From positions 6,324,001 to 6,388,000 of the forward strand of contig NC_090404.1 of NCBI RefSeq assembly GCF_036365525.1: a stretch of 64,000 nucleotides of DNA. The letters run 5' to 3'. The notes under the pieces are model-generated. The model was not told the origin of the DNA, searched no databases, and worked only from the letters and a program-made list of their open reading frames with translations. The position numbers and the translations under genes were made by a program. This document shows, in pieces, positions 1,623-58,496 of this stretch. Source of the DNA: Heterodontus francisci (lineage: Eukaryota). Within the stretch, counting starts at the first letter, position 1. Each line of letters begins with the position of its first letter.

Positions 1623-1641
1623 TGGCCAGCAGATGGCAGTG
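1623..1641 (+). promoter_or_regulatory. CTCF-like motif
   Basis: TGGCCAGCAGATGGCAGTG matches the CCASYAGRKGGCRS core exactly. Confidence 0.6.
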
Positions 1642-1689
1642 AAAGCTTAATTCGTGACACGAAACAGGCGCTGCCTCACTGCACCGGAG

Positions 1690-4625
1690 CCTCTCCCTGT
1701 TTATGTTACACTTCGACTCTGTCTTTGTCTATATTACAGTTTACCATGTCTCTGTTTATATTACTCTAGACAATGTCTCTGTTTATGTTAAACTAGAGCC
1801 TGCCTCTGTTTATATTACACTGGACCGAGACTCTGTTTATATTACTCTCGACAATGTCTCTGTTTATGTTACACTGGACCCTGTCTCTGCGTATATTAGA
1901 ATAGACCCTGCCTCTGTGTATATTACATTTGTACCCTTTCTCTGTTTATATTACACTTAGGCACTGTCTCTGTCTGTATTACACTATACCATGTCTCTGT
2001 TTAAATTAACCTAGACCCCGGCTCTGTTTATATTACACTGGAGCCAGACTCTGTTTATATTACACTCGACCCTCTCTCTGTTTATATCAGAATCAACCCT
2101 GTCTCTGTTTATATTACATTTAGACCCTGTCTGTGTTTATGTTACATGAAATTCTGTCGCTGTTTATATTACACTTCGACACTGTCTCTGTTTATATTAC
2201 TCTAGCTCATGTCTCTGTTTATGTTACACCAGACACTGTCTCTATTTACATTTCACTGGACCATGTCTCTGTTTATATTTCACTAGACCCTGTCTATGTA
2301 CATATTCATATATATTACTCTAGACACTGTCTCTGTTTATATTACACCAGACCATGTCTCTGTTTATATTACTCTAGATCATGTCTCTGTTTATATTACA
2401 GACGGCCTTCACTCACTGCATTTTGACATGACCATATAAATGGAGACAGGGTCCAGTGTAATATAAACATAGATGGTCAATCTTATGGTAAACAGAAACT
2501 CCAGCTCTTATAGCAATAACTGCAAAAGGGCCGAGTGAAGCTAATAAGGCTACAGGACTGGAATAAAATAAACTGAGACAGGGCCTAGTCCAGTGATTAC
2601 TGATACAGGGTCTAGATTAATATAAAACGTGACAGGCCCTAGTGCAGGAATTATTGATACAAGGTCTAGATTATATTTATATTAATAAACTGAGACAGGG
2701 CCTCGTGTAGGAATTAGTGATACAGGAACTATATTAATACAAAGTAAGACAAATCCTGGGCCATCGATGACTTCAATGAGATCACCTATCATTCTTCTAA
2801 ATTCTAGAGAACGTGGGCCCAGTCTTGTCAATCTCTCCTCACAGCACAATCCCTCCATACCAGGGATCAGTCTAGAGAACATTTGTTAACTACTCTTGAT
2901 GGCCATTTCATATGTCAACCACATTGCTGTGGAGCTGGTAGGCTGCCGTGACATGCAGGCCAGACAAGGTAAAACAACAGATTTCCTTCACTAAAGGAAC
3001 CAGGTGGGTTTTCACAACAACGATACCATTATTCAACATGCTTCCAAATCGAATATCACTACCTACTTCGGTGGGATTCGAAACCACGGCCTCAGGATTT
3101 CAACCCGGCCTCAGCTGTAGTAACTTAGTGACAGAACTACTATAACACCAGCTTTGCACAGCATAGCTCCTTTATTCCTATACTCAAATCCTCTTGTATT
3201 AAGGGCCAACATGCTATTTGCCTTCCTAATTGCCTGCTGCACTGCATGTGAGCTTTCAGTGACTTATGAAAAAGGACACCCACGTTCCTTTGGACATCAC
3301 CACTTCCCAATCGCTCACCATTTAAGAAATACTCTGCATTTCTGTTTTTCCGACTAAAGTGGGCAACTACACATTTTTCCACATAATATTCCATCTGCCA
3401 TGTTCTTGCCTACACACTTAGCTGTCTAAATCCCCTTGAAGCCTATTTTCATCTTCCTCACAACTCGCATTCCCACTTAGTTTTGTGTCATTAGCAAACT
3501 TAGAAATATTATACTGATCCTTGCGGTACCTCACTAGTCACAGCCTGCCAATCTGAGAATGACCTGTTGATACCTACTTTCTGTTTTCTGTCTGTTAACC
3601 AATTCTCAATCAATGCCGGTATATTACCTGCAATCCCATGTGGTCGGATTTTGCTTACTAACCTGTCTGGGACCTTATCGAAAGCCTTCTCAAAATCCAA
3701 ATACACCACATCCACTGTTTCCCTTTATCCATTCTGCTAGTTACATACTCAAAAAAGTCTGTCAGGTTTGTCAGCCATGATTTCCCCTCAATAAATCCAT
3801 GTTGACTACGTCCAATCTTACCATATGTTATAACTGTCCAGTTATTACATTATGTATAATAGATTCTAGCATTTTCCCTACTACTGATGTCAGGTTAACA
3901 GGTCTGTCGTTCCCCATTTTCTCCTTCCCTCCTTTCTTAAATATTACACTAGACCCTGTCTCAATTTATATTGAACTAGACCCTGTCTCTGTTTATATTA
4001 GACTAGACACTGACTCAGTTTATTTTAATCCAGACCTGTCTCACTTTATATTAATCTAGTTCCTGTATCAGTCATTCCTGCACTATCTCCTGTCTCAGTT
4101 TATATTAATCCAGACCCTGCATCGGTATTTCCTACTCGAGGCCTTGTCTCACTTTACACTAATCTGGACCTTGTATCAGTAATCACTGGAATATGCCCCG
4201 TCTCAGTTTACTTTATTTCAGTCCTGTCGCTGTCTTAGCTTCATTTGGTCCTGTCTCAGTTATTGCTGCAATATCCAGTGTTTCTGTTTACCATACAATT
4301 GACCATTTCTGTTCATATTGCTCTGGACCATGTCTCTGTTTTTATTACACTCGGCCCTCACTCACTTCATTTCGCCATGACCATATCTTTTTTTAATATA
4401 TTACACTAGGCCACCCTTAGGTCCTAGTTTATATTACTGGAGAACATGTCTAGATTATTAGTGAGCTAGACCATGCCTCTGTTAATTTTACACTAGGCAT
4501 TGTCTCAGTTATTACTGCACAAGTCTTAAGTTATATTATACACAGCCCAGTCTCAGTCAAGAGTGCACTCTATCCTGTCACTTTTTATATTACATTAGGT
4601 CCTATCTTATTTATTGCTGCACTGT
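1690..4625 (+). repeat. 27-bp satellite (CTCTGTTTATATTACACTAGACCCTGT), degenerate, interrupted by LINE/SINE pieces
   Basis: Recurring unit that gives (VSVYITLDP)n pseudo-ORFs on the + strand. Confidence 0.9.
2765..3945 (-). mobile_element. Degenerate CR1 RT fragment with a nested SINE-like piece
   Basis: ORFs with DVVYLDFEKAFDKVP, SEVPQGSV and FSRLIPGMEGL..EERL motifs. Confidence 0.8.
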
Positions 4626-5189
4626 AAAACATCCCATAGAAAGATAGATAGATAGACATACAGACAGTGAGAGTCATTTGTATTATTATGTATAAGAATA
4701 TACGTTTATATGTGAGGATTTAATCATTTTTGGTTGGAAGAATACATTTAGTCTTGTGGTTAGCTATCAGCAGTTGTGTGAAATTTCTAATTCCTCTGGT
4801 ATTATGTGGGTAATATTTGTGTTGAAAGGTTGGGGTGAATCTTGAAACAATCGCCCAGAGATGAACTGGGATTGAGGGACAGGAGTAAAGGTGAGCACTG
4901 CACTGCACTGTATATTACTTAGTGACAAAATCTGTTGTGTTAAAGTTTATTAATTCATAATTATGTTGTACTGTGTCCATTGCTGTCAGTTTGTTTTAAC
5001 GTTAAGGACCTTTTTTCTGCAGGATTTGTTAGTTATCTTCCACCTGACCCATTGCTTGTGTTAGACAGAGTCTGGAACCGTGTTCTCACAGCACCACCAG
5101 ATGGGCTGCCGTAGGGTCCTAATGTGCACCCGATTAGATATCTCTCATCTCATTAAGAGGTGCAATGGAAAACAGCTCACATAAAATGT

Positions 5190-7650: not shown

Positions 7651-10600
7651 ACAGCTGCGAAAAAGCAAAAAGGAACAGATTCTTTTCAGCTCCTCTGAGA
7701 GATGCACCATTGTCACCTCAGATATCAGAAATCTCTGGAGTCCACCATGTTTCCACGGTCATCCCCTTTTTGTATCAACTTAGTCAGGTGGAGTCGGTCA
7801 CACGGGCCTCTGTCATGATGTTTCCACTCCTATTTTGTCACACAAATCCCTGTGGTACTCACCAGAACACAAAAGCCTACATTAGGCCCAAAATATCATG
7901 GCTTCCCTGCACCTTGTCTTCCTGTTGCAATCGGGTGTTTATTGCTTCCCTCAATGTAAGAGTTCTTGCAGTAAAAGCAGCCTCTGTTACTGATACCCTG
8001 GAGCCGGCCTCTGTGATTATTATTATACCAGGTCCCAGTCTGCTCTGGGCCTTGCAGTTGTAACTCCCTTCATAAATCCAAGGGGGAAGAAGTTGGTTTT
8101 TTTAGGAGTGGGTGGGCACGTCAAACCTGCAATGATGCCCCAGGAACCCCGGCCTCGCTGGATGGAGAAGCTGTCCAGAATTGTTCCTTCTGTCAACCCC
8201 CTCACTCCTTCTGAGTCTAAGAAATTAGTAGGCTAAAGAAGAGAAGGACTTGCATTTATACTGGCACTGGGCCCATTGGCCTAGATTATGTGGTCGAATC
8301 TCTGGAGTGGGACTTAAACCCACAATCTTCTGACTCAGGGGTGAGAGTGTCACGAATTAGTCCATGCTGACATGATCCATTCCCATCAGTTCCCATTGCA
8401 CTAAAACGTCCCTGTGTTATGACACTAATTCCATCCCATGCATATTGCAGTCGTCCTTGACGCTGTTATTAGGCATTAGGCAAAGCATTTGCTGTTATGT
8501 CAATAGGTTCTGACTCACGGGCCCTATTATATGAGACCAAAACATTGATTTGGGGCACTAGATACATCATCTTGGATCCAGTGATGTGTTCTGTAATATA
8601 TTGCAGCTTGCCTCTGTTATTATTGGATCAAACAGTCTCTTTGTTATGCTCAAAGTAAGCCTAGTCTTTGATGTTATACTCTATGTCCTGCCTCCACTCT
8701 TATTTTAATAGACCCGGTTTCTGTAATTGTTACACATAGTCGCTGTTATTATTAGAAAAATACCATGTCTGTGATTCCAATTCAAGTGCACACCTCTATT
8801 ATTATTGCTGGAAACTTTGGCTCTGTCAGTTTTCAATAAAAATCTGTTTCTGGTATTGTTAAAGTTGACCCTGCTTCTCTTAGTCTTACACTGCAACGTC
8901 TTTCAGTTATTATTGTACAAAGTATTGTTTCAATTATTATTATATAAAACATGTTTATTCTAGTTTCACCTTAGGTCCTGTCTCTCTGTTATTACTGCAC
9001 TAGCCCATATCTCTGTTTATATTACATGGTATTAAATAATCTGCAATTATAGTTCGAATAACAGGAAATAAAATGCAGAAATTTTTTGGTGAAATAGTTA
9101 TATATCTTTGTGGAAAGACCTTGCAATCATTGCGGATTATTTATTTGGCCCCAACACACACACACACACACATTTGCATACATAACGCATTGTGTGTTCT
9201 CATTTCAGTTGATGAGATGCGAGTGAATATGGTGGACTTTAGGACCCTGCGGCAGCCCGTTGGTTGGTGCTACGAGGTCACTTTTCCAGGCTGTTTCGAA
9301 CACAATCACTGGGTCATGTGAAAGCTAAACTGATAATCCCGCAGTGGAAAAAATTCCTTTACATTAAAAACCGAGCAATTGTCACAGTGCAACACACGTG
9401 AATTAGTAAACTTTAACACAACAGAGTTTGTCACTAAATCGCGTGAAACGCAGTGCACTATTACTGACCTTTAGTCCAGTCCCTCAATCCCAATCCGTCT
9501 CTGGGAGATTGTTACGAGATTCACCCCATCTTTTCAGCACAAATATTCGCCACATTGTACCAGAGCAATTAGAAATTTCACAGCTACTGATCGCTATTAA
9601 CAAGATTAAACATATTCTTCCATAGAGAAAATTATCGCACCCTCTCACACACACAAATATATGAGGTAGAAACTGGTCTCAGGCACTGGCACAGAATGGA
9701 CAGTATTGGATTGACCGCCCGGTATTGGAAGCGCTTGAGATTTAATTTTCTAATGGAACCGAATATCAGGCGCTGCATAGAATGGGTGGATGAGCAAATA
9801 GCGCCCGTTTTGGGCCGGCACCCGAGACCAATTTCCAGTCGAACATCTTTATTTATAATAACATATCTTCATCTCATAGAGACATGGCCTAGTGCAGTGA
9901 TAGCCCGACAGGGTCTAGTGTAATATAAACAGAGACAGGGTCTAGTGTAATATAATCAGAGACAGGGTCTAGTGTGATATAAACAGAGACAGGGTCTAGT
10001 GTGATATAAACAGAGACAGGGTCTAGTGTGATATAAACAGAGACAGGGTCTAGTGTAATATAAACAGAGACAGGGTCTAGTGTAATATAAACAGAGACAG
10101 GGTCTAGTGTAATATAATCAGAGACAGGGTCTAGTGTGATATAAACAGAGACAGGGTCTAGTGTGATATAAACAGAGACGGGGTCTAGTGTGATATAAAC
10201 AGAGACAGGGTCTAGTGTAATATAAACAGAGACAGGGTCTAGTGTAATATAAACACAGACAGGGTCTAGTGTAATATAAACAGAGACAGGGTCCAGTGTG
10301 ATATAAACAGAGACAGGGTCTAGTGTGATATAAACAGAGACAGGGTCTAGTGTGATATAAACAGAGACAGGGTCTTGTGTAATATAAACAGAGACAGGGT
10401 CTAGTGTAATATAAACAGAGACAGGGTCTAGTGTGATATAATCAGAGACAGGGTCTAGTGTAATATAAACAGAGACAGGGTCTAGTGTAATATAAACAGA
10501 GACAGGGTCTAGTGTGATATAAACAGAGACAGGGTCTAGTGTAATATAAACAGAGACGGGGTCTAGTGTGATATAAACAGAGACAGGGTCTAGTTTAATA

Positions 10601-11639
10601 TAAACAGAGGCAGGATCGAGTGTAATATCAACAAATGCAGGGTATAATGTAATATCACCAGAGACAGGGTCTTGTGTAATATAATCAGAGACAGGGCCTA
10701 GTGCAGAAAGAACAGAGAAAGGGCCTAGTGTAATATAAACTGAGACACGGTGAAGTCTGGTGATAACTGACACAGGGTCCAGTGTAATTTAAACAGAGGA
10801 CACAGCGAAGTGCAGTGATCACTGTGACAGGGTCCAGTGTAGTATAAACCGAGAAAGGTTTTAGTGTAATATAAACTGACAAGGTCTAGTTTAATGTAAA
10901 CAGAGACAGGGCCGAGTGTAATAGAAACAGAGATAGGGCCTAGAGCAGTAAGAACAGAGATAGGTTCTAGCATAATATAAACAGAGACACGGCGAAGTCC
11001 AATGATAACTGAGACAGAGTTGAGTGTAATATAAACTGCGGCAGGTGCTAGCATAATATAATATGAGACAGGGCACACTGCAGTTATAACTGAGATAGGA
11101 TTACGTGTAATATAAACAGAGATAGGGCCTAATGTTACATGAACAGAGACGGGCCTATTGGGTTTAGTGGAATATAAACAAAGACTGGAAATAGTGTAAT
11201 ATAAACAGAGGCAGGGCCTAGTGCAGTAAGAACAGAGATAGGATCTCATATAATATAAACAATGGCAGGGCCAACACAATATTAACGCAGAGGGAGGGCC
11301 TAGTTTAATATAAAGAAACATGTTTCAGTGGAGTAATAACAGGGACCTTCTCTAGTATAACATGAACAGAGAAAGAGCCCTACTTTAATATAAATAGAGC
11401 AACAGCCTAGTGGAATATAAACAGAGAAAGAGCCTAGCATAATGTAGCCAACACACGTTTTAGTGTACTATAAACAGGACGGGTCTGGTATAATAAAAGC
11501 AGAGAAAGAACCTGGTGTAATATAAACAGAGACACGGCGAAGTCCAGTGAAAACTGAGGAAGGGTCTAGTGTAATATAAACAGAGACATTGGCTTGTCCA
11601 GCATGAATTGAGAATGGGTTTAGTGTAGTATAAACCAAT

Positions 11640-14600
11640 TATGCAGGACATCTGAAGGGGGAGGGTGAACAATCAGAGGTCCAAACTAATTTGGCAGGGG
11701 GATGGGATACAGAGTGGAGGTACAGTAGGGGATGATGCACAGTCAAACATAAAAGAGAAACTGAGTCAGTCTGGAAGTCGGAGCAAATATAGACCTATTA
11801 CGGCATAAGTGAAAAATGCAAGGCTGGATTGCATCTATTTTAATGCAAGGAGTCTTACTAGTTAGGCAGATGAATTGAGGGCGATGATTAGCACATGGGA
11901 TTATGATATTATTGCTATCACAGACACATGGTTGAGGGAGGGGCAGGACCAGCAGCTCAATATTCCAGGGTATAGAATCTACAGGCGAGACAGGAGAGGG
12001 GGTAAAAGAGGAGGTGGCATTGCACTATTGATCAAGGAGTCAATTACTGCAACAAGGAGGAATGATATCTTGGAAGGTTCCGCAAATGAGGCCATATGGG
12101 TAGAACTTAAAAACAAAAAGGGGCTGGGAGTGTACAACAGGTTTCCAAACAGTCAGGGAGACATAGAGGAGCAGGCATGTAGGCAAATCTCAGAGAGGTG
12201 CAAAAATAACATGGTAATAATAGTAGGGGATTTCAACTTCCCCAATATCAACTGGGATAGTCTTAGGGCAAAAGGATTAAAGGCGTCAGAATTCTTAAAA
12301 TGCATACAGGAGAGCTTTTTGAGCCAGTACGTAGAAAGTTCAACAAGAGAAGGGGCAGTACTGGACATAATCCTCGGGAATGAAGGCGGACAAGTGGTAG
12401 AAGTTTCAATGGTGGGGGTGGGGGGATAGTGACCATAATTCTGTAAGTTTTAAGGTAGCTATGGAAAAGCAAAAATAAGGACCAGAAATAAAGGTACTGA
12501 ATTGGGGGAAGGCCGATTTCAATATGATAAAACAGGGTCTGGCCGAAGTGGACTGGGAGCAGCTACTTGTAGGAAAGTGTACATCAGACCAGTGGGAGTC
12601 ATTCAAGGAGGAAATAGTGAGATTTCAGAGCCAACATGTCCCCGTACAGGTGAAGGGTAGGAATAACAGGTCCAGGGAACCCTGGATGTCAAGGGATAGA
12701 CAGGATTAGACCAGGAAAAAAAGGAGGCTTATGGCAGAGTCAGAGCGCTGAAAACAGCGGAGGCATCAGAGGAGTATAGAAAGTGTAGGGGGTACTTAAA
12801 AATGTAAATAGCAGAGAGAAGAGGGGACATGAAAACTCACTGACGGGCAAGATAAAGGAAAATCCTAAGGCATTTTGTAAGTATATTAAGGGCAAGAGGA
12901 TAACCTGGGATAGAGTTAGGCTCATTAGGGAACAAAGTGGAAATCTGTGTGGAGCCGCAGGACATAGGTGAGGTTTTAAATGATTATTTTTCATCTGTGT
13001 TCACTATGGAGAAGGACCGATGTAGGTGTAGAGATCAGGGAGGGGGATTGTGATAGACTTGAACAAATTAGTATTGAAAGGGATGAATTATTAGCTGTTT
13101 TAGCGGGCATAAATGAGGATAAATCCCCAGGCCCAGATGAGATGTATCCCAGGCTGTTATGCAAGGGAGAAGATAGCAGGGGCTCTGATACAAATTTTCA
13201 AATCCTCTCTGGCCACAAGAGAGGCACCAGAGGATTGGAGTACAATGAATGTCCATTATTCAAGAAGGGTAGCAGGGATAAACCAGGTAATTGCAGGCCG
13301 TTAGGTCTAACATCAGTGGTAGGGAAACCATTGGAAACAATTCTGAGGGACAGAATTAACGTCCACTTGGAGAGGCAGGGATTAATCTGGGATCGTCAAA
13401 ATGGCTTTATCAGGGGGAGATCGTGTCTAACTAACTTGATTGAATTTTTCGAGGCTGTGTCTAGATGTGTAGATGAGGGTAAAGCAGTTGATGTAGCCTA
13501 CATGGACTTCAGTAAGGCTTTTGATAAGGTCCCATATGGGAGATTGGTTAAGAAGGTAAGAGCCCATGGCATCCAGGGAAATTTGGCAAATTGGATCCAA
13601 AATTAGCTTAGGAGGCAGAGGGTGATGGATGATGGTAGTTTTTGCGAGTGGAAGCCTGTGACCAGTGGTGTACCACAGGGATCGGTGATGGGACCCTTGC
13701 TGTTTGTAGGGTACATTAATGATTTAGATGTGAATATAGCAGGTATGATCAGTAAGTTCGCAGATGACACGAAAATTGGTTGAAACGTAAATAGTGAGCT
13801 GGAAAGCCTTAGATTACAGGACGATATAGATGAGTTGGTAAGAGGGACGGAGCAGTGGCAAATGGAATTTAATCCTGAGAAGTGTGACGTGATGCATTTT
13901 GGGAGGACTAAAAAGACAATGGATGGTAGGACCCTAGGAAGTACAGAGGGTCAAAGGGACCTTGGTGTACTTGACCATAGATCACTGAAGGCAGCAGCAA
14001 AGGTAGATAAGGTGGTTAGGAAGGCATATGGGATACTTGCCTTTATTAGCTGATGCATAGAATATAAAAGCAGGGAGGTTATGACTAAGCTGTGTAAAAT
14101 GTTAGTTCGGCCACAGCTGGAGTGCTGTGTACAGTTCTGGGCACCACATTATAGGAAGGACGTGATTGCACTGGAGAGGGTGCAGAGGAGATTCACCAGG
14201 ATGTTGCCTGGGCTGGAGAATTTCAGCTATGAAGAGAGACTGAAAAGGCAAGGGTTGTTTTCCTTAGAGCAGGGAAGGCTGAGGGGGGACATGATTGAGG
14301 TATACAAAATTATGAGGGCCTTGAAAAGGTTAGATAGTTCGAAACTTTTTAGCTTAGCGGAGGTGTCAATAAGCAGGGGGCATAGATTTAAGGTAAGGGG
14401 TAGGTGGTTGAGAGGGGATTTGAGGAAATACTTTTTCATTACGAGGGTGGTTGGAATCTGGAATGCACAGCCTGAAGAGGTGGTAGAGGCAGGAAACCTC
14501 ACAACACTTAAGAAGTATTTGGATGGACACTTGAAACGCCATAGCATACAGGGCTACGCACCAAGTGCTGGAAAATGGGATTAGAATACTAAGTTGCTTG

Positions 14601-14668
14601 TTGGCCAGCACAGACAAGATGGGCTGAAGGGCCTGTTTCTGTGCTGTATGACTCTATGACTCTATTGA
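11640..14668 (+). mobile_element. CR1-clade LINE, near-complete but frameshifted ORF2
   Basis: APE ORF 11875..12429; RT ORFs 12980..13606 and 14081..14584; (TATGACTC)n tail; flanked by TA(T/C)AAACCAAT at 11629-11639 / 14669-14679. Confidence 0.92.
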
Positions 14669-17600
14669 TACAAACCAATACTGTGTCTAGTTCAGTAATT
14701 ACTGAGACAGGGCCTAGTGCAGTAAAACTGAGATTGGGTCTCGTATAGGATTAACAGACATGCTCTGCTGTAATTGAATCAGATACATGTTCCAGGGTAA
14801 TATGAAATGAATCGGGTACAATAATAATTGAGACAGAGTCTCGTGTAATGCGAACAGGGACATGGTATAGTGTCGTCATAAATGAAACAGGGCCTAGTAT
14901 AAGGAAAAAGTTAGACAAGGCCCAGTGCCGTTTTAAGTGATAGAGGACATTGTGCAATATAAATTGAGACAGACCATAGTGCAGTAATACTGATACAGGA
15001 CCTCGATTTCTATGTGCTGAGACATGGACAAGTGCAGCAAAACTTGATTGTAGTCACATTTAACGGAGAGATGGTTTAGTACAGTTATAACTGAGACATG
15101 GTTTTATGTGATGGAAACAGAAACGTGATCTAGTGCAGTAATAACCTAGACAGGACATTGTGTAATACAAGCAGAAAACCAGGTCCACGACATTAACACC
15201 TGAAATTGGGCGAGTGTCGAAATAATTGAGGCATGGACTGCTTTTATATGATTAGAGGCAACGTTTGCTGTAATACAAATAGGAAAATGAGCTAGTAGAA
15301 TAGAAACAGGGATGCCATCTAGCAAAATACAGACTAAAGCAGGCTCTGGCTTCATATAAACTGAGTCAAGTTCCAGTGTAATATAAACGGAGACAGGATC
15401 TTGTGTAATATAAACAGAGACAGGATCTAGGGGAATATAATCAGAGATGGGGTCTAGTGTAACATAAACGGTGACAGAGTGTCATGTAATATAAACAGAG
15501 ACGTGGTCCAGTGTATTATTACCAGAGACAGAGCCTAATTTATTACAAACAGAGAAATGGTTCAGTGCAATATAAACAGAGACAGCATCTGGTGTAAAAT
15601 AAACGGAGACAGGATCTCGTGTACTCTAATCAGAGATGGGGTCTAACATAAACAGTGTAATGTAATGCAAACAGAGACAGGGCCTAGTGTAATATAAACA
15701 GAGACAAGGTCTACAGTAATATAAGCAGAGACAGGGTCGAGTGTAAGATGAACAAGGACAGGGTCTAGTTTAATCTAAACAGAGATACGGCAAAGAACAG
15801 TGATAACTGAGACAGGATGTAGTGTAATATAAAAAGAGACAGGATCTGGTGTAGTATAAACAGAGACAGGGCCTAGTTTAATACAAACAGACAGAGTACA
15901 GTGTAATAGAAACAGTGATAGCATTTAGTGTAATATAAACAGAGACAGGATCTAGTTAATATAATCAGAGATGGGGCCAAGTGTAACATAAATATAGAGA
16001 GGGTGTAGTTTAGTAAAACAGACACAGGGCCTAATATAATATAAACAGAGAAAGGGCCTACTTTAATATAAACTGAGACAGGGTTTACATTAATATAAAC
16101 CGAGGCGGGGTCCAGTGTAGTATTAACAGAGACATGGTATATAGTAACGTAAACAGAGACAGGGTCTTGTATAATATAAACAGAGACAGGGCGTATTGTA
16201 ATACAAACAGGCAGGTACTAGTGTAATATTGACAGAGAAAGGGCTTAGTGTAATATAAACAGAGACAGGTTCTCACATAATATAAACAGAGAACGAGGCT
16301 AATGTAATTTAAACATAGACAGGGTCTACAGTAATATACACAGAGACAGCATCATCAGTAAACAGTAATATAAACAGAGACAGGGCCTAGTTGCATACAA
16401 ACAGATGCAGGGTCCAGTGTATAATAAAATAAACATTTTCTAGTGGAATATAAGAAGAGAGAGGTCTAGTGTAACCATAAACAGAGGCAGGGCCTTGTAT
16501 AATATAAACAGAGGCAGGGTCTAGTGCAATGTAAACACACAGGGCACAGTACAATATAAACACACACAGGGTGTAGTTTAATGTAAACAGAGACATGTTA
16601 CAGTGTAATGTAAACAGAGAGGGTGATCCTAGTGTAATATAAACAGAATATTAATAAAGAGAGACGGCTTAGTTTGATATGAAGAGACATGTTCCAGAGG
16701 AGTAATGGCAGAGACATGGTCCAATTTAATATAAACAGAGATATTGACTTGTCCAGCATTTGAGACTGGGTTTAGTGTAGTACAAACAGACACAGGGTTT
16801 GGTGCAGCAATAACAGATACTTTGCCGAATTTAATATAAACAGAGACATAGTCCTGTGTAGTAACAGCTGAGACAGGATCAAGTGCAGTAGTAACTGAGA
16901 GAGGGACTGATGCAATATGATCGGAAACAGGCTTGTTGTAATATAAATAGGGGCAAAGTCTTGTGCAGGAATACAGAGACAGGGTCACGTGCACCAATCA
17001 TTGATACAGGACCTCTAGTAATATAAACCAACACTGGGTCCAGTTCAGTAATTACTGAAATAGGGCCTAGTGCAGTAAAACTGAGATTGGGTCTCGTGTA
17101 GTATTAACAGACATGGTCTAGTGTAATTTAAACTGAGACATGTTCCAGGGTAATATGAAATGAGTCGAGTACATTAACAATTGAGACGGAGACTCGTGCA
17201 ATGTGTACACGGACATGGTATAGTGTAGTGAAACAGGACCTATTATAAGAAAAACCTGAGGCACGGTCCAGTGCAGTTTTAAGTGATAGAGGACATTGAA
17301 CAAGATAAACTGAGACTGATCCTAGTGCAGTGATACTGACACAGGACCTCGATTTCTGTGAGATGAGACATGGACAAGTGCAGCAATAGGTGAAGCAGGA
17401 TTCCGTGTTTAGTTAGGCATTTAACAGAGAGATGGTTCAGTACAGGAGTAAAAGCGACATGTTTTGTGTGATAGAAACAGAAATATGGTCTAGTTCAGTA
17501 ATAACCTAGACAGGGCATTGAGTAATACAAGCAGAAAGCAGGTCCACTATATAAACAACCGGAGATTAGGCGAATGTCGGAATAATTGAGGCATGGACTG

Positions 17601-17867
17601 CTTTTGTCTGATTAGAGGCAACGTTTGTTGTAATACAAATAGGAAAATGAGCTACTGTAATATAAACAGACACCATCTAGTATAATATAGACGAAAGCAG
17701 GCTCTACTTAATATATACTAAGAGAGGGTCTAGTGTTAGATAAACCGATATTGGAAATAGTGTAATATAAACAGAGACTGGGTCTGCTGTAATATAAGAG
17801 AGACAGGGCCCAGAGCAGTAATAACTGAAGCTGCGCCTGTTTCATGCAATGTGGACAATCGAGCTTT

Positions 17868-17886
17868 CACTGACACCTGGTGGTTG
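17868..17886 (-). promoter_or_regulatory. CTCF-like motif (paralog of 1623-1641)
   Basis: Reverse complement CAACCACCAGGTGTCAGTG, one mismatch in the core. Confidence 0.45.
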
Positions 17887-18118
17887 TGTTTGGCCATTGC
17901 TCCTATTGTGAAAATGTCGATGTCTGTTACTGTTTCTGATATTAATACACCAAGAAACAACTTGCATTGATACACAAGATCATCACCTTCTCTAGGAGGT
18001 CCCAACATTTGAAGTGCAACTAATTCCAGATAAACGTGGCCGATTTGTGTACAGAAACATCAATGATAGAGCAACGTGGCTGAACTCTTGTTTCTGTATT
18101 TTTATTGAAATTGGTTAA

Positions 18119-18265
18119 TTAGTTTGCAGCACCTGCGACAGAATCTGCCTCTCAAAGATTGGCCTTCACAGCCATCAGCAAAGATGCCCCAAGAAAGACA
18201 TCCTACCTAAATGGGTTGCTGGCTGCGTGTGCATCATCTTTCATAGATGGAAGGATGCCAAACCA
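18119..18265 (+). mobile_element. RTE-clade LINE 3' tip
   Basis: Encodes CSTCDRICLSKIGLHSHQQRC (C-terminal zinc finger); TSD TGGTT(A/G)A; absent from the paralogous site at 1389-1395. Confidence 0.75.
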
Positions 18266-19754
18266 TGGTTGAAGGGAGGAATGTTGACCAAGGCACAGTG
18301 TGGGGACCATGGGAGCTTTAATGTCTACCTCAACAGAGAAGCTGGACGGGAGAGATTATTCGTTCATGATATCATCTGAAAGACAGTGGGGCCGATTTTC
18401 CCCAATACTGTAAGTGCCACTGAGCCTCCAATAGAACCAAGGTTAGACCTTCAGCTGAAGCATTGGCTTAGCCCCCGTTTAACGCAAGATGCCATGTTGG
18501 TAAAGGAGTTGACACTTGCGCTCGGATCAGTCGCCCAGAGGATCATTCATCAGCGGATTGTCACTGATACCGCCTCTGAGCCTCATTAAAGAGGCTGTGC
18601 TCCATTTTGGCAACTAATACTTGACCGCCCTTCTCTCCAAACAGCAACCAACTGATTGGGATTAAACAAGTTGTTGCAGATGGTTTCTGTGCTAGTTAAA
18701 GGTACATCACCTTTTACTGTCCATCGGCTGCTGGAAGTTTCAAGAGGACTTTTAAATGTCATCAGGATCATTTCTGGGACACTTTTTCGACTTCGCCAAC
18801 ACGGTATCAATATTTAGCCTGTTCACGCAACTATTTCCTCCAATAGCTTTGATGGTTTAGATCATTAATAACTGAGGCACAAACTGGCATACTGTATGAA
18901 GGGGCATGGTTTAATGGTGTAACTAGAGATATGGCCTTTTGCAACAAAAACTGAGATGCAGCCTAGCATAATATAAAAAGCAACATAGTCTAGTGTAACA
19001 ATGTGGGATATGATTTTGTGTAATATAAATGGGATATGATGTAATGCAGTAATAACTGAGTAAGGCCTAATGTATTATAAACAGAAAAGTGGTCTCCTGC
19101 ACTAATAACTGCACATGGTCTAATGTAGTAAGAAGAGATAGAGCCTTGTGTAATAGAAACAGAGATATGGTCCATTGTAGTAATAAGTGAGACAGGGCCT
19201 AGTTTAATCTGAGCAGAAGCGAAGTCTAGTGTTGTAATAGCCGAAAATGGGTCCTGTGAATATAAAAAAAGAGATGATATAATGCATTGCCAACTGAGAT
19301 AATGTCAAGTGTAACAAACAGGTTCTAGTGAAATATCAGCAGATACTTGATTTAGTTGAGTACTAACTGCGACAGCATCTAGTGCAATAAAATTAGAGAC
19401 ATGGTTTAATCACTGAGACAGGGAGTGGTCAAGATGAACAAAGAGTGAGATGTAGTTTAGTGCGCAAGAACTGAGACATAATCGTGCATAATATACAGAG
19501 GCAATCTTCTGCAATTAAAACGGAAACATGACCATAGTAACATCAACAGAAATACGGACGGCTGTAATGTTACAGAGTCGAGTGTAATGTAATGTGTACC
19601 AAAGGAACATGGATATAGAACCATAGAAAAGTTACGGCACAGTCCCACGTGTCTGCGCCGGCTGAAAAAACTAGCCGCCTAATGTTTATATTACATTAGG
19701 CCTTGTCTCAGTTTTCTTTGCACGAGGCCACAGACTACTCCAGTAGAAAACTAA

Positions 19755-21280: not shown

Positions 21281-21359
21281 ATTATTATAGGAGTGCATGA
21301 TTTACCGGCTCAATCCAACACCCCTTTTACACCTGTTGTTAATAAAAAGAACAAAAGAA

Positions 21360-39765: not shown

Positions 39766-40157
39766 TTAAACATCTGCGGGAACCGTTCGTGTCTGTCCTC
39801 CTGCCCCCGGCAGAAGATGTCTCCGCTCAGAGGTTTCTCTCCCTCACCTGCTTAGTGAGAGGTTTCTCCCCCAGGGAGATCTTCATCAAGTGGACCGTCA
39901 ATGACAAGTCGGTGAATCCCGGCAACTACAAGAACACCGAGGTGATGGCGGAGAACGACAATAGCTCCTTCTTCATCTACAGCCTGTTATCCATTGCAGC
40001 GGAGGAGTGGGCCAGCGGCGCTTCTTACTCCTGTGTGGTGGGACATGAAGCGATCCCCTTGAAGATCATCAACAGAACAGTTAATAAATCCAGCGGTAAA
40101 CCGAGTTTTGTGAACATTTCCCTTGCACTGTTGGACACTGTCAATTCATGTCAATGA
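39766..40157 (+). CDS. IGHM: C-mu4 exon plus secretory tailpiece (internal donor after 40095 for the membrane form)
   Basis: Acceptor TCTGCAG|; [22 protein letters not shown]..; tailpiece [20 protein letters not shown] with N-glycan site and penultimate Cys; AGCG|GTAAA donor. Confidence 0.97.
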
Positions 40158-40185
40158 GAATCTTTCGATTGCATTTCAATTCCTA

Positions 40186-40201
40186 AATAAAAATCAATAA
40201 A
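40186..40201 (+). terminator. Secretory poly(A) signals (two AATAAA)
   Basis: AATAAA at 40186-40191 and 40196-40201, just after the stop. Confidence 0.85.
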
Positions 40202-41264: not shown

Positions 41265-42175
41265 AGGCACACGGACACAAACACACACATAAACATACTC
41301 ACATGCACTACCACACACACATGCACCTGCATACAGGAACAGACCCAAACACAGATATGAATGCTCCCACAGTCAAAGACACAAACATAAACATAAACAC
41401 ACACCTTAGTGCAGTCTCACTTACACAGAAACATAGACATAAAAATACACACTAGGATTCACATTAATACACGCGCATGGATGCACATACTCGTACATTA
41501 ACAAAATCATACACGTACACACAAAGACATAGATAAATAGACACATTAACCCACTCACACACACAAATAAACACCAACATTAATATACTGACACACAAAC
41601 GCATGGAAACACAAACACGCACAGAAACACATACAGTAGCACACGTACACATAATTATACATTAACACACGCAATAATTCATTAACGTAGACATCAATGC
41701 AAAAGCACACAAATTATCACAATTATGGGGGCACATCACACATAAACAAACACCTTAACACACCTTTATACACAGTCATTCACACATAAACACACATTAA
41801 CTTAAAGGGACCCACAAACACATCCAGCAACACAGAAACACAGGTGAATAAGCTGATGGGGACACAAACACACATAACCAAATATTAACACGCTCATACA
41901 TACACATGGACAGATAGACACAACACACCCAAATACACATACAGGCGGTCACTTGAATACATACATCAATGCTCATTGGCACGCTAACACACATTAACCT
42001 ACATGGATACATACACACAGCCATCAACATATAAAGAAACACATTAATGCACCCGATTTTGGGTATACAAACAAATAAACACATTCATTCACACTCACAC
42101 AAACTCACACATGGATACACAAACACAGAGTAATGCAAAGCAAGAGATACTCATACACACATACACAAACAAAAA
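41265..42175 (+). repeat. Long imperfect CA-rich tract in the C-mu4/TM1 intron
   Basis: About 0.9 kb of CA/ACAC-rich sequence on the sense strand. Confidence 0.88.
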
Positions 42176-42743
42176 TGCCAGATTATAGACGAAAGCAGAA
42201 TTCAAATGCGCTATTTGAACAGACACCGTCTTCAACATTTTTCCTCATACATGTAAGACCTACAATTTCAATGAAGCAATGTTTTCACTTAGAAACTGAG
42301 ATAAGTTATTGATTTTTAAATAAACAAGCAAAATTGGAACTCGCATCCGATCCCTTACCCAACAACATTGACAATCTCCAAATAAGTATCTATCTGAACC
42401 TATCTTCAATATAATTGCTATCAATCGGTAAACCTCCCTCTATATCTCACCATAATAATGCCCAATGATAGAACAAAATCGATCTAAACTAAAATAGCGC
42501 CTGACACTGAAAAAAAAACTGACATATTTTCCAACACGACCTGGGCGAGGATCATAAGGCAAGAACGCTGAGGAGTGACAGAGATAGCTGGCTGAACATG
42601 ATTAACTGACTCGATAAACATTGAAAATTAAATTGAAGAACAAAATAATGGCTCAAGGAAGTAAATTGCGAATGTAAAAGAGCAATCTTATATTTAGGAT
42701 TAATAAGAGATCTAAATACATTTCCTCCCCTACATCTCCGTAG

Positions 42744-42871
42744 ATTCATCAGACCACATCTGGATTGAAGACAATGAGGAAGAGAGCGGCAACATCTGGA
42801 CAACCGCTTCCACATTCATCATCCTGTTCTTCCTGAGCATTTTCTACAGTGCTGCTGTCACTCTGGTGAAG
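42744..42871 (+). CDS. IGHM: IgM TM1 exon
   Basis: Acceptor CCGTAG|; DSSDHIWIEDNEEESGNIWTTASTFIILFFLSIFYSAAVTLVK (CART motif); donor AAG|GTGAG; missed by the ORF track. Confidence 0.96.
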
Positions 42872-43016
42872 GTGAGAATACTCAATCCACTCACATTTCA
42901 AGTTGATTGAAGCTGTTTGACAAGTCTCTAAAGTTTTCACAGATTAAAATAAACCTGCGAGATGTATGTCCCAGAACACCAAATCTCTGCTTCATTCTTT
43001 TATCCCTCTTTTACAG

Positions 43017-43025
43017 GTCAAGTAA
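43017..43025 (+). CDS. IGHM: IgM TM2 exon (VK-stop)
   Basis: Polypyrimidine tract then TTACAG|GTC AAG TAA, giving the KVK cytoplasmic tail. Confidence 0.93.
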   Translation, partial: VK

Positions 43026-43252: not shown

Positions 43253-43824
43253 TAACTATTCTTTATTCACAATTGTTTTCTTCCCTTTATGTTGAGCCCC
43301 TGTTTTTTTCTCTCTGGTCTGTTACAGTTTTATAGACAGCTGGCATCTCGGACCGCATGTGTACTGTTCTTGATGTGTCACGCAGTTGTTATTATTCAGT
43401 TTGAACCTTTTTAAAAATTTATTCTTTTGAAAATTGTTAATAAAACTTGAATAACAAATGGAATAAGTTGCCGAATTCCTTAACACAAGGCCCATCTACA
43501 CGCTGCATTTTCCCCATTACAAGTTTTTCCCCTTTCCTGACAGCTATTTTTCACCGGTCCTGTTTGGGTTGGGTTTCAATGCACTCCGGTGAAAGAGATG
43601 CTGCGCCATCCAGTGTCCCATCAGAGTAAACACTCCTTTTCCCCTGCTTGATGATGTCAATCTCCAGAGACATTATGACCGCAGAGCGACCAGGAGCATC
43701 TCACTGACATCTTTCATTTTCGGGTCGGTCACAGTCACGTGCCAGGTTATGTCAAAGGGCAACACTCTGCTCCATCATAGCCTGACATACAACAGTATAT
43801 GGAAGATATGTTAAAATAGTGTAT

Positions 43825-51842: not shown

Positions 51843-52109
51843 CCTAGAGAGGACCGAGTTTAAAATAAAGAGACATATTTCATTGGATTAATAACAGGGA
51901 CCTACTCTTGTATAATATAAGCAGAGAAACAGCCGAATGTCATATAAATAGAGCAAGAGTGTAGTGCAATATAAACAGAGAAAGAGCCTAGTATAATGTA
52001 ACAGACAAAGGGTCTAGTGTTATATAAGAACAGAAAGAGTCTAGTGTAATATCGTCAGAGACAGGGACTCATGTAATATAAAAAGAGACAGTCGTACTTA
52101 ATATAATTA

Positions 52110-52420
52110 CATAGGAAGAAACATTTTCCCTTAGTGGAGGGATCAATAACCAGGGGCATAGATTTAAGGTAAGGGGCAGGAGGCTTAGGGTGGATTTAAG
52201 GAAAAAAAATTCACCCAGAGGGTGGTTGGAATCTGGAACGCAATGCCAGAAGAGGTGGTAGAGGCAGGAACCATCACAACATTTAAGAAGTATTTAGATG
52301 AGCACTTGAAGCGCCATAGCATACAAGGCTATGGGCCAAGTGCTGGAAAATTGGATTAGAATTGATGGCCGGCACAGACACGATGGGTCGACTGGCCTGT
52401 TTCTGTGCTGTATGACTCTA
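52110..52420 (+). mobile_element. CR1 3' fragment inserted in the satellite
   Basis: Closely similar to 14340-14660; TATGACTCTA tail. Confidence 0.85.
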
Positions 52421-55400
52421 CAAACAGAGACTGGGCCTGGTTTAATATACACAGATACAGGTTCAAGTGAACCAGGAACAGAGAAAAGGCCTAGTGTAGT
52501 ATAAACAGAGACAGGGTCCAGTGAAATATAAACAGAGACCTGGTCCAGTCTAAGATAAATAGAAACAATGCCTGGCATAATATAAACAGAGGCAGCTTCT
52601 AATGTTATATAAACAGAGACAGGGTCCAGTGCAATATTAGCAGACACATATTCTACTGTAATATAAACAGAACGAGGTCTAGTGCAACATAAACAGACGG
52701 GGTGTAGTGTAATTTAAACGGAGACAGGGTTCAAAGCCATATAAGCAGACACATGTTGTAGTGTACTATAAACAGAGAGAGGGTGTACATTGATATAAAT
52801 GGAGACAGTGCTGAGTGTAGTATCAACAGAGACGTGGTCTGGTTTAATATCAACAGAGACAGGGCCTAGTGTAATAGAAACCGAGATAGGTCTGGAGCAG
52901 TAATAACAGAGATAGGCTATAGTGTAATATAAACAGAGACACGATGAAGTCCAATGAGAACTGAGACAGGGTTGAATGTAATATAAACTGAGGCAAGGCG
53001 TAGTGGAACATAAACTGAGACGGGGCACACTGTAGTAATAACTGAAATAGGATCTAGTGTAATATACACAGAGACAGGGCCTAATTTAATATAAACGGAG
53101 ACAGGGCCTACTGGAGTAATATCAGAGATAAGACCAAATGCAACATAAACAGAGACAGAGTCTAGTGTAATTTAAATATGGAAGGGTCTGGTGTAATTTA
53201 AACAGATACATATTCAACTGTAATATGAAATGAGCCAGCCACAATAATAATTGAGATAGAGTCTCTGACTCTATGAATCAGAGTTTCATAAGTGAAACAG
53301 GGCCTAGTATAAGAAAAACTGAGACAAGGCCCAGTGCAGTTTTAACTGATAGAGGACATTGTGAAATATAAACTGATACAGACCCTAGTGCAGTAGTTAG
53401 TGATGCAGGACCTCGAATTCTATGAGCTGAGACATGGACAAGTGCAGCAATACATGAGACAGGATTCCATGTTCTAGTAACATTTAACAGAGAGATGCTT
53501 CAGTACAGTAATAACAGAGACATGGATTTGTGCAATAGAAACAGAAACGTGATCTAGTGCAGTAATAACCTATTCCCGGCATTGTGCAGCACAAAAGAAG
53601 CCAGGTCCACTATGTTAACACCTGAAATTGGGCGAATGTAGAAATAACTGAGGCATGGACTGCTTTAATATGATTAGAGGCAATGTTTGTCGCAATACAA
53701 AAATGAGCTAATGTAATATAAACAGGGACAACATCTAGTATAATGCAGACTAAAGCAGGATCTGGCTTAATATAAACGGAGTAAAGTTACAGTGTAATAT
53801 AAACAGAGACAGGGCCTAGTTTAATACAAACTGACAGGGTACAGTGTACTTTAAAGAGCGACAGCATCTTGTGTAATATAAACAGAGACTGTATGTTGGA
53901 TAATATAATCAGAGATGGGGACTAGTGTATCATAGGCAGAGACAGGGTCAAGTGTAATATAATCAGAGAATGGGTCTACTATTATATAAACAGAGACAGG
54001 GTCTACATTAATATAGACAGCGGCAGAGTCCGCCATAATATTAGCAGAAACAGGGTCTACAGTTATGTAAACAGGAACAGTGTAATAGTGTAATATAAAC
54101 AGAGACAGCATCTCGTGTAATATAAACAGAGACAGGGCCAAGTGCAATATATACACAGACAGGACCTTGAGTAGTATCAACATAGACAGGGCCTAGTGTA
54201 ATGTAAACCGAGACAAGGTCAACAGTAATATAAGCAGAGTCAGGGACGAGTGTAATGAGAAGAGACAGAGCCTAGTGTAATATAAACAGAAACCTGGTCT
54301 AGTGTAATATAAACAGACAGCTCCTAGTGTAATGTAAAGAGAAACAGGATCCAGTGTAGTATAAACAGAGACAGAGTCTGCAGTAATATACACAGAGATA
54401 GTGTTGCGTGTAATGTGAACAACAACAAAGCCGAGTTGAATATCAACAGAGATACAGCAAAGTCCAGTGATAACTGAGAGAGAGTCGAGTGTAATATAAA
54501 CAAAGACAAGATCTAGTGTAAAATAAAAAGATACAGGGCCTAATTTAATTCAAGCAGACAGAGTACAGTGTAATAGAAACAATGACAGGATTTAGTGTAA
54601 TATAAACAGAGACATGATCTAGTGTAATATAATCAGAGATGGGGCCAAGTGTAACATAAACATATACAGGGTTTAGTGTAATACAAACAGAAACAGGGCC
54701 TAGTGTAATATAAACACGTAAAAGGCTGACTGTAATATAATGTAATATGGTCCTGTATAGTAACAGCTGAGACAGGATCGAGTGCAGTGGTAACTGAAAG
54801 AGGGACTGATGCAATATGATCGGAGGCAGGCTTGTTGTATTATACATAGGAGCAAGGTCTTGTGTGGAAATACTGAGACAGGGCCTAGTGTACCAATTCT
54901 TGATACAGGACCTACAGTAATATAAACCAGCACTGTGCCGAGTTCAGTAATTACTGAGGCAGGGCCTAGTGCAGTAAAACTGAGATTGGGTCTCGTGCAG
55001 TATAGCCATGCTCCAGTGTAATTTAAACAGTTACATGTTCCAGAATAATATGAAACGAGTCGAGTACATTAACAATTGAGACAGAGATTCGTGAAATGCG
55101 AACAGGGAAATGGTATAGTATAGCCATAAGTGAAACAGGGCCTGTTATAAGAAAAAGCTGAGACACGCCCCAGTGCAGTTTTAAGTGAGAAAAGACATTG
55201 GGCAATATAAACTGATACAGATTCTAGTGCAGTAATTGCTCATACAGGACCTCGATTGCTATGAGCTGAGACACGGCCAAATGCAGCAATACGTGAAGCA
55301 GGATTCTATGTTCTCGTAACATTTAACAGCGAGATGGTTCAGTACAGTAATAACAGAGACGTGGCTTTGTGTGATAGAAACAGAAACATGGTCTAGTGCA

Positions 55401-55753
55401 ATAATAACCTAGACAGGGCATTCTGTAATACAAGCTGAAACATGGTCCACTATATTAACACCTGAGATTGGGCCAATGTAGAAATAACTGAGGTATGCAG
55501 TACTTTTGTCTGATTAGACGCATCGTTTCTTGTATTACAAATAGGAAAATGAGCGAGTGTAATATAAACAGGGACACCATCTAGTATAATATATGCTAAA
55601 GCAGGCTCTACTTAATATAAATTGAGAGAGTGTCTAGTGTAATATAAACAGACAATATCTAGTGTAATTATAAACAGAGACTGGATATAGTGTAATATAA
55701 ACAGAGACAGGGTCTAGAGCAGTAATAACTGAGGCAGCGCCTGCTTCATGTAA

Positions 55754-58451
55754 TAAAGAACAAACAAAGAACAAAGAACAGTACAGCACAGGAACAGGCC
55801 ATTCGGACCTCCAAGCCTGTGCCGATCTTGATGCCTGCCTAAACTAAAACCTTCTACACTTCTGGGGACCGCATCCCTCTATTCCCATCCTATTCGTGTA
55901 TTTGTCAAGATGACTCTTAAACGTCGCTATCGTACCTGCTTCCACCACCTCCCCCGGCAGCAAGTTCCAGGCACTCACCACCCTCTGTGTAAAGAACCTG
56001 CCTCGCACATCCCCTATAAACTTTGCCACTCTCACCTTAAACCTATGCCTCCGAGTAACTGACTCTTCCACACAGGGAAAAAGTTTCTGACTATCCGCTC
56101 TTTCCATACCGCTCATAACTTTGTAAACCTCTATCATATCACCACACCACCTCCGTCGTTCCAGTGAAAACAATCCGAGTCTATCCAACCTTTCCTCATA
56201 GCTAATGCCCTCCAGACCAGGCAACATCCTGGTAAACCTCTTCTGTACCCTCTCCAAAGCCTCCACGTCCTTCTGGTAGTGTGGCGACCAGAATTGCACG
56301 CAATATTCTAAGTGTGGCCTAACTAAAGTTCTGTACAGCTGCAGCATGACTTGCCTATTTTTATACACTATGCCCCGACCGATGAAGGCAAGCACTCCGT
56401 ATGCCTTCTTGACTACCTTATCCACCTGCGTTGCCACTTTCAGTGACCTGTGGATCTGTACGCCCAGATCTCTCTGCCTGTCAATACTCCTAAGGGTTCT
56501 GCAATTTACTGTATACTTCCTACCTGCATTAGACCTTCCAAAATGCATTACCTCACATTTGTCCGGATTAAACTCCATCTGCCATTTCTCCGCCCAAGTC
56601 TCCAACCGATCTATATCCTGCTGTATCCTCTGACAATCCTCATCACTATCCGCAACTCCACCAACCTTTGTGTAGTCCACAAACTTACTAATCAGACCAG
56701 CTACATTTTCCTCCAAATCATTTATATATACGACAAACAGCAAAGGTCCCAGGCTGATCCCTGCAGAACACCATTAGTCACATCCCTACATTCAGAAAAA
56801 CACCCTTCGAATGCTACCCTCTATCTTCTATGACTGAGTCAATTCTGTATCCATCTTGCCAGCTCACCTCTGATCCTGTGTGACTTCAACTTTTGTACCA
56901 GTCTGCCATGAGGGACCTTGTCAAAGGCTTTACTGAAGTCTATATAGATAACATCCACTGCCCTTCCTTCATCAATCATCTTTGTCACTTCCTCAAAAAA
57001 CTCAATCCAATTAGTGAGACACGACCTCCCTTTCACAAAACCATGTTGCCTCTCGCTAATAAGTTCGTTTGTTTCCAAATGGGAGTAAATCCTATCCCTA
57101 AGAATCCTCTCCAATAATTTTCCTACCACTGACTTAAGGCTCACCGGCCTATAATTTCCTGGATTATCCTTGCTACCCTTCTTAAACAAAAAGACAACAT
57201 TGGCTATTCTCCAGTCCTCTGGGACCTCACCTGTAGCCAATGAGGATGCAAAGATTTCTGTCAAGGCCCCAGCAATTTCTTCCCTTGCCTCCCTCAGTAT
57301 TCTGGGGTAGGTCCCATCAGGCCCTGGGGACTTATCTACCTTAATGCTTTGCAAGACACCCAACACCTCCTCCTTTTCGATAATGAGATGACTGAGACTA
57401 TCTACACTCCCTTCCCTAGGCTCATCATCCACCAAGTCCTTCTCTTTGGTGAATACTGATGCAAAATACTCATTTAGCACCTCGCCCATTTCCTCTGGCT
57501 TCACACTTAGATTCCCTTCTCTGTCCTTGAGTGGGCCAACCCTTTCCCTAGTTACCCTCTTGCTCTTTATATACATATAAAAAGCCATGGGATTTTCCTT
57601 AATCCTGTTTGCCAATGACCTTTCATGACCACTTTTAGCCCTCCTGACTCCTTGCTTAAGTTCCTTCCTACTGTCTTTATATTCCTCAAGGGATTCGTCT
57701 GTTCTTAGCCTTCCAGCCCTTACGAATGCTTCCTTTTTCTCTTTGACGAGGCTCACAATATCCCGCGTTATCCAAGGTTCCCGAAACTTGCCAAACTTAT
57801 CCTTCTTCCTCACAGGAACATGCTGGTGCTGGATTCTAATCAACTGACATTTGAAAGGCTCCCACATGTCAGATGTTGATTTACCCTCAAATAGCCACCC
57901 CCAATCTAAATTCTTCAGTTCCCGCCTAATATTCTTATAATTAGCCTTCCCTCAATTTAGCACCTTCACCCGAGGACTGCTCTTACCCTTATCCAAAAGT
58001 ACCTTAAAACTTATGGAATTATGGTCACTGTTCCCGAAATGGTCCCCTACTGAAACTTCGACCACCTGGCCGGGCTCATTCCCCAATACCAGGTCCAGTA
58101 CGGCCCCATCCCTAGTTGGACTGTCTACATATTGTTTCAAGAATCCCTCCTGGATGCTCCTTACAAATTCTGCCCCATCCAAGCCCCTAGCACTAAGTGA
58201 GTCCCAGTCAATATAGGGGAAGTTAAAATCACCCACCACTACAACCTTGTTACCTTTACATCTTTCCAAAATCTGTCAACATATATGCTCCTCTACCTCC
58301 CGCTGGCTTTTGGGAGGCCTGCAGAAGACCCTCAACATCGTGACTGCACCCTTCCTATTCCTGAGCTCCACGCATATTGCCTCACTGCACGACCCCTCCG
58401 AGGTGTCCTCCCGCAGTACAGCTGTGATATTCTCCTTAACAAGTAATGCAA
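55754..58451 (-). mobile_element. Young 5'-truncated CR1 LINE with 13-bp TSD
   Basis: ORFs 57952..58269, 56839..57867, 55844..56743; (TTCTTTG)n tail; TSD CTGCTTCATGTAA / CTGTTTCATGGAA; empty site at 17837-17849. Confidence 0.95.
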
Positions 58452-58477
58452 CTGTTTCATGGAAACAATCAGCCTTT

Positions 58478-58496
58478 CATTGACACCTGGTGGCTG
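58478..58496 (-). promoter_or_regulatory. CTCF-like motif (paralog of 1623 and 17868)
   Basis: Reverse complement CAGCCACCAGGTGTCAATG. Confidence 0.4.

Follow-up and report, generated by a model that had tools for sequence, protein, structure and literature searches.

A recurrent CTCF-type motif in the duplicated far-5' flank of an IgM heavy-chain minicluster of the shark Heterodontus francisci

Introduction

Why the immunoglobulin (Ig) miniclusters of sharks rearrange within themselves, and how it comes about that only one or a few of them are active in each B cell, are long-standing questions. For the nurse shark, wide spacing offers an easy answer to cluster autonomy, as the IgM loci lie at least 120 kb apart and no role was seen for long-distance recombination (PMC2435157). 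We analyzed a stretch of 64,000 nucleotides from Heterodontus francisci (contig NC_090404.1, positions 6,324,001 to 6,388,000; hereafter the window, with coordinates counted from its first base) that contains exactly one IgM heavy-chain minicluster, which is intact, unrearranged, and arranged as V-D-D-J-Cmu on the plus strand. In contrast to the nurse shark loci, the next cluster here seemingly lies about 41 kb away, the apparent cluster period, and a boundary element would therefore matter more. A sequence-only reading of the window had proposed one, namely a CTCF-like motif which the duplicated flank module carries, which is convergently oriented around the IgM cluster, and which is perhaps duplicated with each minicluster as its own insulator cassette.

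The account that we prefer, though we hold it tentatively and at slightly under even odds, is that an ancestral CTCF-type site of the far 5' flank recurs in the flank copies, would likely bind CTCF and form there an incomplete barrier that halts cohesin mainly in one direction, and would help to partition the clusters while not being what confines V(D)J joining.

Strong CTCF-type matches flank the cluster

Both strands of the window (127,964 positions) were scored against a version of the MA0139.1 count matrix (column sums 908-913). The three best-scoring matches of the whole scan are site A at 1623..1641 on the plus strand (24.0 bits, p = 3e-9), site B at 17868..17886 on the minus strand (18.9 bits, p = 2e-7), and site C at 58478..58496, also on the minus strand (17.7 bits, p = 6e-7). 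Site B faces away from the cluster, whose VH start codon is 7.7 kb downstream of it; site C is found 15.5 kb past the last Cmu exon, within a paralog of the upstream flank; and site A belongs to an older inverted arm. All three match the matrix far above background: three sites reach p <= 1e-6 where 0.13 are expected, compared with 19 against an expected 12.8 at p <= 1e-4. Among 100 block-wise dinucleotide shuffles of the window, the best single score was 21.7 bits and none reached 24, two sites of at least 18 bits never occurred, and three sites of at least 14 bits occurred in four. Since A, B, and C are aligned paralogs, this evidence counts once, for one strong ancestral site. The sequence-only reading had named five sites, with the correct letters and strand for 5/5, and its three main sites hold up in the scan (all p <= 6e-7).

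The two weaker candidates of that reading fared differently. The match at 25454..25472 (minus strand) scores 13.5 bits (p = 6e-6) and sits in the VH promoter, immediately 5' of a TATA-like box, whereas the candidate at 5091 (plus strand) scores 2.4 bits and was rejected as a CTCF site, its counterpart in the inverted copy of the surrounding block having decayed. The 25454-25481 region, where the match abuts the TATA-like box about 90 bases before the VH start, is CpG-rich (observed/expected 0.82 vs 0.44). This match may be a GC box or, by analogy with mouse Tcra V genes, a V-promoter CTCF site. A further medium match that the earlier reading missed lies at 43601..43619 (minus strand, 13.0 bits), 0.6 kb past the second transmembrane (TM) exon, TM2, and points back into the cluster; by analogy it is a nearer counterpart of a 3' CTCF-binding element (CBE) than is the site at 58478.

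The sites are carried in a duplicated flank module

Alignment upholds the claim that the motif is carried in a duplicated flank module, with paralogous heads and satellites around all three sites. Each site stands where a head of about 1 kb gives way to a degenerate minisatellite with a 27-bp repeat, and points into the minisatellite. In arm B the head (17855..18816), the minisatellite (9863..17840, with LINE-like DNA in between from about 11.9 to 14.6 kb), and a tail block, X (9209..9622), are all on the minus strand. Arm C has its head at 58465..59435 (minus strand, 86-87% identical to head B) and its minisatellite at 51874..55759 (minus strand), with LINE-like DNA (55.8-58.45 kb) between the two. 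Arm A, on the plus strand, is an older inverted copy with the same head-satellite-X order at 76-80% identity. Its head (1297..1647, 77-80% identical to heads B and C) is truncated, being cut on the left by LINE-like DNA, and is followed by an interrupted minisatellite (1652..4640) and by block X (4735..5156), which contains the failed 5091 candidate and of which the arm B block is the inverted copy at 76%. Heads B and C, unlike head A, carry an inserted 3' piece of about 150 bases from a high-copy repeat (18117..18265, plus strand, in B), presumably, to judge by its motif, the end of an RTE-type LINE.

Paralogy between B and C extends well beyond the head, from about 9.9-22.7 kb in one copy and 51.9-63.6 kb in the other, at 86-94% identity. 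It includes a flank block at 19760..21871 (plus strand) shared with 61204-63286 at 87-89%, and a proximal block at 22429..22694 (plus strand), which lies 2.9 kb 5' of the VH start and recurs at 63356-63620 with 94% identity. Because B and C match in the head, in the further blocks, and in the proximal block, C is most simply the upstream flank of a next cluster, and it probably is so; judging by the offset, the V of that cluster would start at about 66.5 kb, beyond the window. What speaks against placing a site beside every cluster is that no V gene is seen beside A or C in the window and that the B/C similarity ends at 63620: one of the three flank copies has a V alongside, and the other two run toward the window edges.

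Some features of the module stand apart from the CTCF question. The 27-bp minisatellite (9907-11588, 15354-17840, 51874-55759, 1690-2400) amounts to several kb per flank and has a young, homogeneous stretch at about 10.0-10.8 kb; its open frames, with no protein match (0/8000 candidates), are spurious products of the repeat. Arms A and B form a large, old inverted duplication (1297-5156 vs 9209-18366, about 77%), arranged tail to tail, which may mark a head-to-head neighbor cluster to the left of the window. The proximal block, 265 noncoding bases between neighbors at 87-89%, has 16 differences (94%; P = 4e-4 at 12.5% divergence, for a block chosen post hoc). Its conservation exceeds that of the CTCF head, and it is a candidate for either a conserved upstream regulatory element or a gene-conversion tract.

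Orientation of the sites around the cluster

Strong sites thus flank the cluster on both sides, at 17868 and 58478, 40.6 kb apart. Both are on the minus strand, so that the direct flanks are in tandem, and the medium matches at 25454 and 43601 are likewise on the minus strand. Site A is the sole strong forward site in the window, and from 17900 to 58400 no plus-strand position scores above 10.1 bits. Convergence across the IgM cluster, as the sequence-only reading described it, therefore holds for the outer pair, 1623(+) and 58478(-), which are 56.8 kb apart, and not for the sites that flank the cluster directly. The closest convergent pair, 1623 and 17868 (16.2 kb), contains no Ig segment. 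The outer bracket exists because the older inverted arm (about 77%) sits on the left.

The duplication unit carries a single strong site, which lies 7.7 kb 5' of V and points away from that V gene. The idea that each minicluster has its own insulator cassette holds insofar as a strong motif travels with the duplicated flank, the head of which appears to exist in some tens of copies, and is not supported for a two-sided cassette: we found no inward-facing pair per cluster, and the forward anchor lies in the older inverted arm, next to which the window has no Ig exon. Under the convergence rule, 1623(+) and 58478(-) would confine the cohesin that is loaded on this cluster; it would pass B from behind and halt at A and C, so that exactly one cluster would be enclosed in 56.8 kb. 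This point favors a closed loop around the cluster. The next tandem cluster, however, would lack a forward anchor: its closest strong forward site would once more be 1623, and the present cluster would fall inside that loop. The only other forward candidate, 5091, has failed.

Conservation of the motif

By simple count the motif is not more conserved than its flanks. Sites A and B differ at 6/19 core positions and at 47/210 flank positions, and B and C at 2/19 and 26/210, respectively. The placement of the changes gives a different picture. The seven core columns that vary are poorer in information than columns drawn at random (P = 0.04, with three copies), and 2 of the 3 inner core changes swap between favored bases. 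In CTCF sites of the type read by zinc fingers (ZF) 9-11, the core is preceded at a distance of 2-7 bp by an upstream motif, a CTGCAGTTCC-like block (PMC12885311, PMC10484683). In the three-way alignment of our sites, the columns at the position of this upstream motif are all invariant (10/10), as are 10/13 of core columns 4-16, whereas across the linker and the first three, low-information core columns only 2/9 are. A possible likeness of our sites to the ZF9-11 type is a 10-base block, invariant in 3/3 copies and 6 bases before the leading triplet of the core, inside the 2-7 bp range, with a variable linker. They differ in that the block has just 5/10 identity to the published consensus, which by that measure is indistinguishable from background. 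Across the three copies, this pattern is suggestive of footprint-like constraint on a CTCF-type core.

Several results weigh against selection on the motif, beginning with the counts above. At a linker of 6 bases, 38% of random positions equal the 5/10 match of the upstream block, and a stricter upstream pattern that does fit (background 0.09%) was picked after the sequence had been seen. The linker differences may be a single event, and the most conserved 32-column block (30/32, P = 0.055) extends past the coverage of CTCF. In a neutral model given the best possible ancestor, all three sites remained at 17.6 bits or more in 26% of 100,000 runs and at 13 bits or more in 55%. Finally, B and C share a disfavored G>T change at core column 14 and C has another disfavored change, so that the copies closest to the Ig genes are the weaker ones.

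Copy number and nature of the head

Contigs from 4 of the 12 sequencing runs listed were aligned to 17820-19020 at 80% likeness. Their summed depth over the motif bins is about 300-510, which is among the deepest of the non-repeat bins of the head, and near-exact contigs (0-1 differences) account for a depth of 3.9-14.5. Over the inserted repeat, 230 bp from the motif, the depth is 9,000-177,000. In a second sample, raw reads number about 0-6 for the head compared with 230-640 for the repeat, again a gap of several hundred-fold. The motif is therefore not part of a high-copy mobile element, as its depth falls short of that of the inserted repeat by a factor of hundreds. This suggests that the head family has tens of copies and is not a high-copy transposon, with the limits that a summed depth is not a copy number and that 3/4 runs come from one sample, possibly the source of the assembly. 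The variant columns listed within 17854-18094 are each found in 8-25 contigs, and among the variant rows listed (40 of 283) none lies inside the core. Some contigs skip the inserted repeat, like arm A, others carry it, and 10-20% other letters are seen, a variety which indicates that the head family is old and diverse. As many as two hundred Ig clusters are reported for some shark species (PMC5192425); tens of head copies are of the order of shark cluster numbers, and the other copies, too, may be linked to Ig genes. Within the head, 18476-18516 shows a 40-base depth spike (about 2,200) with consistent loose ends at 18512, which suggests a short piece in common with another repeat family.

The head matches no protein or RNA family. 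A Pfam search with its 12 frames returned one match at E = 0.11 and nothing else, a protein search of the head matched 0/64 candidates, and a 67-aa frame across site B had no match among 1.84 billion representatives; neither a transposase-like nor any other protein was found in the head. The variable columns fall on the three codon phases as 28/25/20, of 87 each, with no codon-phase signal, and this flat distribution together with the absent protein matches led us to reject a coding origin. Rfam gave no match in the window. A scan of metagenome contigs with the 19-base pattern yielded eight loci, all of which (8/8) match only 20-22 bases and were set aside as chance.

The IgM minicluster

The leader exon (25573-25618) and VH exon (25745-26049) together span 25573-26049 and, with a recombination signal sequence (RSS) of 23-bp spacer, occupy 25573..26088. 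They are followed by D1 at 26500..26514 (5' RSS of 12 bp, 3' RSS of 22 bp), D2 at 26894..26906 (a 12-bp RSS on each side), and JH at 27300..27349 (23-bp RSS). The RSS order is thus V23 / 12-D1-22 / 12-D2-12 / 23-J with all segments in the same, plus-strand orientation, as in a shark IgM minicluster, and the distance from V to J is 1.8 kb. The Cmu exons (34866..43025, plus strand) comprise CH1-CH4 and the secretory tail at 34.9-40.2 kb, TM1 (approximately 42737-42877), and TM2 (43017-43025). The VH domain was recognized in a PDB search, and CH1 is 92% identical to the Heterodontus francisci IgM heavy chain (UniRef entry P0001). The V-D-D-J-C layout, with about 400 bp between segments, is the one known from shark IgM miniloci (PMC2435157), and the literature passages searched make no mention of the flank module.

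Immediately 3' of JH lies a degenerate direct repeat of 300 bases (27441-27744 and 28064-28359). Exact octamers occur in the window at 9172 and 32144 only, the VH promoter having none, and that at 32144 falls inside the 7.5-kb J-C intron; together with the direct repeat it marks a possible intronic enhancer region. A 63/66-bp tandem array with strong strand skew lies at 44558-45396, 1.5 kb 3' of Cmu.

Discussion

On the tentatively preferred account, each copy of the site would bind CTCF and face away from its own V gene. In a tandem array the same site would then be an upstream-pointing element 5' of its own cluster, in the orientation of mouse CBE1, and an inward-pointing element 3' of the previous cluster, oriented like the 3' Igh CBEs of mouse. 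Only at an inverted flank, as at 1623, would a true convergent bracket form. Within-cluster joining would most likely follow from the 400-bp spacing of the segments and from local activation; the site would be a back-up and may in addition restrict the sharing of enhancers. With V to J only 1.8 kb, proximity alone could explain within-cluster joining, and given an inter-cluster partner at about 40 kb and the switching between clusters described below, the site is probably not the cause of cluster autonomy.

Mammalian loci provide partial parallels. In mouse, CBE1 is the stronger impediment to scanning by RAG and inverted CBEs retain substantial activity (PMC10293834), so that an upstream-pointing site is not disqualified. 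Site B points upstream as does CBE1 of the mouse intergenic control region 1 (IGCR1), and site C, like the 3' Igh CBEs, is 3' of Cmu and points into the locus. Mouse Igh, however, has a divergent CBE1/CBE2 pair and ten 3' sites, neither of which is found in the shark locus, and IGCR1 lies between V and D whereas site B lies upstream of V; the likeness described here is one of orientation. Closer in layout, mouse Igl and the 41-kb main Tcrg cluster are bracketed by convergent CTCF-bound sites, and mouse Igl V genes rearrange only inside their own cluster (PMC5859386). These are also cluster-type loci, similar in size (main Tcrg cluster 41 kb; here 40.6 kb from B to C) and with a CTCF motif on either side. 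Their sites are ChIP-proven and convergent, whereas those described here are predicted motifs in tandem copies of one site, and the forward site sits in an inverted remnant 16 kb further out. CTCF-flanked clusters are thus known already from mouse; what differs here is one outward-facing predicted site per unit. That oriented sites can matter in cartilaginous fish is seen from skate, where they mark the borders of topologically associating domains (TADs) and where loop extrusion with such sites has been reported (PMC10115646). No study of CTCF at shark Ig loci stood out among the papers that literature searches listed, and the word "CTCF" occurs 0 times in the shark Ig papers PMC12227049, PMC2435157, and PMC5192425.

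The most serious competitor, which we nevertheless consider unlikely, is that the site is a passenger: an ordinary CTCF site inside a 40-kb duplication unit, drifting, and with no role in Ig regulation whether it is bound or not. Vertebrate genomes usually have a CTCF site every few tens of kb. In mouse pre-B cells, 42,250 CTCF peaks are reported genome-wide (PMC5859386). Descent of all three sites from one ancestral event, neutral survival in 26-55% of runs, and the weakening changes in the Ig-proximal copies all fit a passenger, as do the short V-J distance and the lack of a role for long-distance recombination in the nurse shark. A drifting site is less readily squared with changes that avoid the informative columns, with an upstream-motif position that is invariant while the linker is not, or with the depth of the motif bins at 80% likeness, which is as expected if more paralogs stay similar there.

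More doubtful is the view that the head and the 27-bp minisatellite are a low-copy dispersed repeat which is not tied to Ig genes and carries the CTCF motif along. Rodent B2-type repeats have spread CTCF sites in this way, arm A has the head-satellite-X layout at only about 77% identity and lacks a neighboring Ig exon in the window, and the contigs vary in their inserted repeat and their letters. The B/C similarity, however, continues for about 4 kb past the head toward V with LINE-like pieces in common, which argues for a segmental copy over the insertion of an element; the head lacks both a transposase-like or other protein and a codon-phase signal; and its depth is hundreds of times under that of a true dispersed repeat.

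We regard as similarly improbable a bolder form of the preferred account, in which every IgM minicluster would have one selected, bipartite CTCF site about 8 kb upstream of V that serves as its 5' barrier and as the 3' anchor of the previous cluster, partitions the array into recombination and enhancer domains, contributes to autonomy and heavy-chain exclusion, and is the functional precursor of both IGCR1 CBE1 and the 3' Igh CBEs. Least probable is a closed convergent loop copied with every minicluster and confining RAG to it, for although the 1623/58478 bracket and the mouse Igl and Tcrg clusters speak for such a loop, the unit has one strong site and no pair, B and C are in tandem, and isotype switching between shark clusters has been reported (PMC5192425), which implies that the clusters are not sealed.

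A passenger would be an ordinary CTCF site that lies in a segmental duplication. On the account that we tentatively prefer, the finding is a specific, countable element in the flank of this IgM minicluster, one that predicts one-sided stripes in tandem arrays and closed loops only at inversions.

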